NCBI RefSeq assembly: GCF_030013205.1
Contig: NZ_CP122648.1
DNA: 64,000 nt
Direction: 5' to 3' (one strand)
DNA from: Escherichia coli
Lineage (GTDB): Bacteria > Pseudomonadota > Gammaproteobacteria > Enterobacterales > Enterobacteriaceae
Position numbers: made by a program. The first letter of the stretch is position 1; the number at the start of each line of letters is the position of its first letter. Below, in pieces: positions 63,201-64,000 of this stretch.

Positions 63201-64000
63201 TTTCAAGCCGGAGATTTCAATATGCGTCCAGCAGGCCGTAGCAATAATCAGGTGCGTCCCGTTACCCTGACTCGTAACTATACAAAACATGCAGAAGGCT
63301 CGGTGCTGGTCGAATTTGGCGATACCAAAGTATTGTGTACCGCCTCTATTGAAGAAGGCGTGCCGCGCTTCCTGAAAGGTCAGGGCCAGGGCTGGATCAC
63401 CGCAGAGTACGGCATGCTGCCACGTTCTACCCACACCCGTAACGCGCGTGAAGCGGCGAAAGGTAAGCAGGGTGGACGCACCATGGAAATCCAGCGTCTG
63501 ATCGCCCGTGCTCTTCGTGCGGCAGTAGATTTGAAAGCGCTGGGTGAGTTCACTATTACGCTGGACTGCGACGTGCTTCAGGCTGATGGTGGCACGCGTA
63601 CCGCTTCGATTACGGGTGCCTGCGTGGCGCTGGCAGATGCGCTACAGAAGCTGGTGGAAAACGGCAAGCTGAAAACCAACCCGATGAAAGGGATGGTAGC
63701 CGCAGTTTCTGTCGGGATTGTGAACGGCGAAGCGGTTTGCGATCTGGAATACGTTGAAGACTCTGCCGCTGAAACGGACATGAACGTGGTGATGACTGAA
63801 GACGGGCGCATCATTGAAGTGCAGGGGACGGCAGAAGGCGAGCCGTTCACCCATGAAGAGCTTCTCACCTTGTTGGCGCTGGCCCGAGGGGGAATCGAAT
63901 CCATTGTAGCGACGCAGAAGGCGGCGCTGGCAAACTGATTTTTAAGGCGACTGATGAGTCGCCTTTTTTTTGTCTGTAGAAAAGTAAGATGAGGAGCGAA

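Follow-up and report, generated by a model that had tools for sequence, protein, structure and literature searches.

A full-length rph allele and the rph-pyrE attenuator region in a porcine Escherichia coli

The rph gene in the stretch of E. coli DNA analysed here (64,000 nucleotides, hereafter the window) is full length and keeps the G residue that the K-12 rph-1 allele has lost. Taken as a whole, the locus is most probably, at about 95% by our estimate, an rph-pyrE operon of the ordinary wild type, from a natural E. coli outside K-12, in which the coupling between the two genes is intact. Such an operon is textbook biology, and nothing in the sequence speaks against this reading. A comparison by script shows that the window matches bases 32001-96000 of NZ_CP122643.1 byte for byte; this record is the chromosome of E. 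coli ETEC4079, which comes from pig faeces in Belgium. The features on which the argument turns are collected in Table 1.

Table 1. Features of the rph-pyrE region, in window coordinates
Feature	Coordinates	Strand	Evidence
Perfect TATAAT, possible -10 of an rph-pyrE promoter (putative)	63180..63185	+	sequence
Shine-Dalgarno-like GGAG, 8 nt upstream of the rph start codon	63210..63213	+	sequence
rph, ribonuclease PH, full length	63222..63938	+	TIGR01966, Pfam, 1R6L alignment, RefSeq
Five-G run (codons G223-G224), where K-12 rph-1 lost one G	63888..63892	+	MG1655 alignment
TAG that closes the 228-aa rph-1 product early in MG1655; not in the rph frame here	63907..63909	+	MG1655 translation
pyrE attenuator hairpin, AAGGCGACT-GATG-AGTCGCCTT	63944..63965	+	terminator scan, RNA fold, MG1655 identity
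Run of eight T, the attenuator's terminator tail	63964..63971	+	sequence and scan
pyrE Shine-Dalgarno GAGGAG	63991..63996	+	sequence

A complete RNase PH gene

The rph reading frame comprises 717 nt, i.e. 238 codons plus a TGA at 63936-63938, and the RefSeq annotation of the identical source record places rph (WP_001247093.1, "ribonuclease PH") at the same coordinates. ATG 63222 is taken as the start since the alignment to the RNase PH model begins at residue 2, a GGAG lies 8 nt upstream (Table 1), and the RefSeq coordinates agree; the TTG at 63198, from which the longest ORF would begin, was rejected. Antisense ORFs within rph, of 108 aa each, were also rejected as genes, being without supporting evidence.

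The translated product scores 380.8 bits (E 1.9e-114; model positions 1-235 of 236) against TIGR01966, the NCBIfam equivalog for RNase PH, whose curated cut-off is 141.5 bits. Pfam places RNase_PH (PF01138, 107.1 bits) at residues 10-140 and RNase_PH_C (PF03725, 58.3 bits) at residues 157-222, so that the two-domain architecture is complete. The native C-terminus is present, with residues 2-237 aligning to residues 3-238 of 1R6L chain A (350 bits, E 3.7e-104); this end-to-end alignment with the Pseudomonas aeruginosa RNase PH (structure 1R6L/1R6M), an orthologue from another genus, covers the C-terminal segment that rph-1 removes. An earlier note on this DNA had read rph as a full-length gene of 238 aa with its native C-terminus, and the profile and structure alignments bear this out. 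From the literature on the enzyme, this complete RNase PH is predicted to act as a phosphorolytic 3'-5' exoribonuclease in the trimming of tRNA precursors.

The rph-1 site and its two alleles among E. coli genomes

Window positions 63100-64000 were aligned with their counterpart in MG1655 (NC_000913.3). At the G run in codons 223-224 the window has five G and MG1655 has four, as seen in the alignment and by script, and because of this extra G the rph-1 one-base deletion is absent from the window, as the earlier note had also held. In MG1655, whose rph (b3643) is annotated as "truncated RNase PH" with a length of 687 nt, translation shifts frame after G223 into ESNPL*, which gives a 228-aa product ending ...ARGESNPL*. 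The TAG that closes this product lies outside the rph frame in the window, (63907-63222) mod 3 being 1, and the window frame continues to its TGA.

When the missing G is restored to MG1655 rph, the gene encodes 238 aa with two residue differences from the window protein, which has A138 and T216 where K-12 has V138 and I216. At the nucleotide level the window rph differs from K-12 rph+ by 17 substitutions in 717 nt, two of them amino-acid-changing and 15 synonymous, and it is a distinct natural allele. The same 17 differences, A138V and T216I included, separate it from the rph+ lines of K-12 that are not derived from W1485. The upstream region 63100-63221 is identical in the window and MG1655, and so is all that follows the G run (63893-64000), the hairpin and the T-run included. 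With wild-type E. coli rph+ the window shares the 238-aa product, the five G, the stop codon, the attenuator and the rph-pyrE spacing. The K-12 rph-1 strains (MG1655, W3110, BW25113, J53) have the locus, the neighbours yicC, dinD and pyrE, the promoter region and the attenuator as in the window, but they have four G, a 228-aa product, and a stop that lies 29 nt farther from the attenuator.

The two residue differences from K-12 are the one ground for supposing that a full-length Rph with A138 in place of V and T216 in place of I might be functionally impaired. The P. aeruginosa enzyme, however, has I and A at those positions, which marks them as variable, and the equivalog score of the window protein lies far above the cut-off; moreover, identical rph DNA is widespread in natural isolates, having been found in E. 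coli from pigs, cattle, dogs, gulls and humans. We accordingly give functional impairment next to no credence.

The frequencies of the two alleles come from megablast probes that seed a match only if the length of the G run agrees exactly, run against 5,426 complete E. coli genomes. The 31-mer with five G matched 5,244 of the 5,426 genomes and the 30-mer with four G matched 169; the remaining 13 matched neither probe and may have SNPs within the 30 nt that the probe covers, or rph lesions of another kind. An earlier 68-nt K-12 query had returned 167 exact rph-1 alleles, a count confounded by nearby SNPs, hence the use of the 30- and 31-mers. Five-G rph is thus the species norm, present in roughly 97% of sequenced E. 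coli. Sixty four-G records, drawn at even intervals from the list, all look like K-12 laboratory derivatives: MG1655, W3110, BW25113, J53, HMS174, MFDpir and comparable strains are among them, and the others are records of 4.5-4.9 Mb that resemble these.

A G run is a homopolymer and as such a typical site of slippage and of sequencing error, so one could ask whether the full-length ORF is a misreading that hides rph-1 or another frameshift; nothing else speaks for this. The alignment refutes it by giving five G and an uninterrupted frame of 238 codons. At least 30 complete genomes, independent of one another, share the same 901-nt segment (63100-64000) at 100% identity, and the five-G 31-mer is found in the 5,244 genomes counted above, which leaves a hidden frameshift a vanishingly small probability.

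Strain background and accessory DNA

The earlier note had further taken the full-length rph, together with accessory blocks, as an indication of a non-K-12 background. The background stands on other grounds: 17 SNPs in rph, a backbone divergence of 2-4% (the blocks shared with MG1655 are 95.7-98.4% identical), and accessory DNA amounting to about 27 kb show that the strain is a natural non-K-12 E. coli. The accessory DNA consists of six blocks that are missing from MG1655 (1573-4943, 13975-14814, 16091-30026, 34569-35894, 39662-46917 and 51625-52481), several of which are low in G+C, at 35-39%.

The full-length rph itself does not stand as evidence on this point, and taken alone is no sign of a non-K-12 strain, since some 180 genomes have five G within an rph of K-12 sequence. 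A 69-nt probe that carries the K-12-specific flanking SNPs together with five G has an exact match in 180 genomes, including C600, DH1, DH5alpha, DH10B, MC4100/BW2952, NCM3722, RR1, AG100 and many commercial cloning strains. According to PMC5379014, the rph-1 allele first appears in W1485 and the strains descended from it, and RR1 does not have it; the allele marks the W1485-derived branch of K-12 (MG1655, W3110, BW25113, J53), not K-12 as a whole. Several records labelled 'K-12 MG1655' (CP010438-CP010445) have five G, i.e. a repaired or rph+ allele.

The accessory blocks have features of their own. Between ilvN and uhpA, the 3.4-kb island at 1573-4943 (35% G+C) has two ORFs, 1837-3132 (431 aa) and 3386-4843 (485 aa), neither of which falls in a family of Pfam, PADLOC or NCBIfam. 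This island is found in 1,109 of the 5,426 complete genomes, in every case on the chromosome and under the annotation 'hypothetical protein', and its identity ranges from 80 to 100%, unusually wide against 96-98% for the backbone. The block at 13975-14814, between yicN and nepI, encodes a toxin of the RelE/ParE family (14322-14675) together with a helix-turn-helix antitoxin (14015-14338).

A 14-kb island at 16091-30026 lies between nepI and yicS. It holds the inverse-autotransporter adhesin gene air/eaeX (16294-20556), annotated as a frameshifted pseudogene, and a separate C-terminal piece with an Invasin_D4 domain (21828-22709), as well as eilA, which encodes a HilA-family regulator (22761-24458). 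After eilA come type III secretion translocator genes of 36-39% G+C, SipD/IpaD-like at 24661-26010 and SipB/YopB-like at 27197-28978; the set also includes a 376-aa ORF of no family (26054-27184) and a SycD/LcrH chaperone (29226-29723).

The tRNA-Sec gene selC lies on the minus strand at 34205-34299 (Rfam, 83.8 bits), and an IS2 copy (block 34569-35894, transposase 34580-35808) sits between it and yicJ. On the other side of selC is a small rhuM fragment (33998-34126), and there is no large island at selC. Between yicI and yicH, a 7.3-kb sugar-utilisation cluster (39662-46917) encodes a BglG-family antiterminator, PTS fructose-family IIA, IIB and IIC components, two ketose-bisphosphate aldolases, a ROK-family protein and a D-lyxose/D-mannose isomerase. 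Directly after gltS, and overlapping the 3' end of recG, is a 288-aa ORF at 51627-52493 (region 51625-52493) that is missing from MG1655 and had no match in Pfam, PADLOC or NCBIfam.

The pyrE attenuator and the coupling of pyrE to rph

The neighbours upstream of rph, yicC (62232-63095) and dinD (61186-62022), both on the minus strand, are those expected for the locus. Downstream, pyrE (642 nt) is located on the same strand as rph at NZ_CP122643.1 96004-96645, i.e. from window position 64004 onwards, four bases past the window end, and the annotation of the source record gives a gap of 65 nt between the two genes. A sigma-70 consensus scan of 62900-64000 called no promoter, the TATAAT upstream of rph being without an adequate -35 at 16-18 nt, and the lack of a promoter-like site in this interval is consistent with co-transcription of rph and pyrE.

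Within the gap, the terminator scan and the RNA fold agree on a hairpin of nine pairs (five of them G-C) with a 4-nt loop, which is the sole terminator-like site after rph. Rfam at gathering thresholds returned only tRNA-Sec in the whole window, with no curated family over the attenuator. The element in this position is named the pyrE attenuator loop in PMC2784333, which cites Bonekamp 1984 and Jensen 1993; as described there, where the stop codon lies with respect to this loop sets pyrE expression, via translation-transcription coupling. The earlier note had described rph as followed by a clean terminator. It was right as to the stem-loop and the eight T, and fell short as to their role, the structure being the UTP-sensitive pyrE attenuator of the rph-pyrE operon and not simply a gene-ending terminator.

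By sequence alone the hairpin and T-run form a canonical intrinsic terminator, and folding of the 86-nt segment gives a modest z-score of -2.3. Both observations would suit a plain, unregulated terminator of a monocistronic rph, with pyrE transcribed from its own promoter and the rph allele irrelevant to it. We consider this very improbable. The gap between the genes is just 65 nt and has no promoter-like site, and published work treats rph and pyrE as one operon with an attenuator, in which evolving MG1655 cultures repeatedly select mutations that return the stop codon to a place next to the loop (PMC5933015; PMC2784333). For one class of compensatory rph-pyrE deletions, up-regulation of pyrE was not clear in the expression data (PMC2784333).

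In the published model of this operon, the translation of rph governs the transcription of pyrE. When UTP is scarce, RNA polymerase would lag and the ribosome finishing rph would follow close behind it; a ribosome this close would cover the 5' arm of the hairpin, and with termination thus suppressed pyrE would be transcribed. When UTP is plentiful, the polymerase would outrun the ribosome and termination would occur before pyrE. A similar logic operates at the E. coli pyrBI leader attenuator, where polymerase pausing is UTP-sensitive and a close ribosome blocks the terminator hairpin; the pyrBI ribosome translates a short dedicated leader peptide, whereas that of rph-pyrE finishes a full-size functional gene.

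The frameshift would matter for pyrE because the attenuator sits so near the end of rph: the gap from the native stop to the hairpin is 5 nt in the window, and that from the rph-1 stop is 34 nt. A ribosome reaches about 12-15 nt downstream of its A site, and given this reach only the native stop would let it mask the 5' arm. With the fifth G kept, ribosomes would get to the native rph stop and the rph-pyrE coupling would be intact; in rph-1 they would stop 29 nt earlier, the hairpin would always form, and pyrE would be under-expressed. Strains with rph-1 are reported to be without complete RNase PH and to have lowered pyrE expression (PMC9997739, PMC2784333), and the truncation and the lowered pyrE lead to pyrimidine starvation, which is partial in MG1655, W3110 and EMG2 (PMC9997739; PMC5933015). 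The earlier note had expected polarity on pyrE from rph-1 and none from the present allele, an expectation in line with the published mechanism.

One could further imagine that A138 and T216, or the 15 synonymous distal changes in rph, have a slight effect on RNase PH activity or on the pausing of polymerase and so shift the set-point of pyrE attenuation in the porcine lineage. No observation points to such a shift, and we regard it as a very faint prospect.

For annotators, the absence of rph-1 is not usable as a means of calling a strain non-K-12. From the literature on the operon we infer, on good grounds, that pyrE is normally regulated in this strain, with translation-coupled read-through of the attenuator; the rph-pyrE arrangement of ETEC4079 is the normal one, and the pyrimidine-starvation quirk of MG1655 and W3110 would not apply to it.
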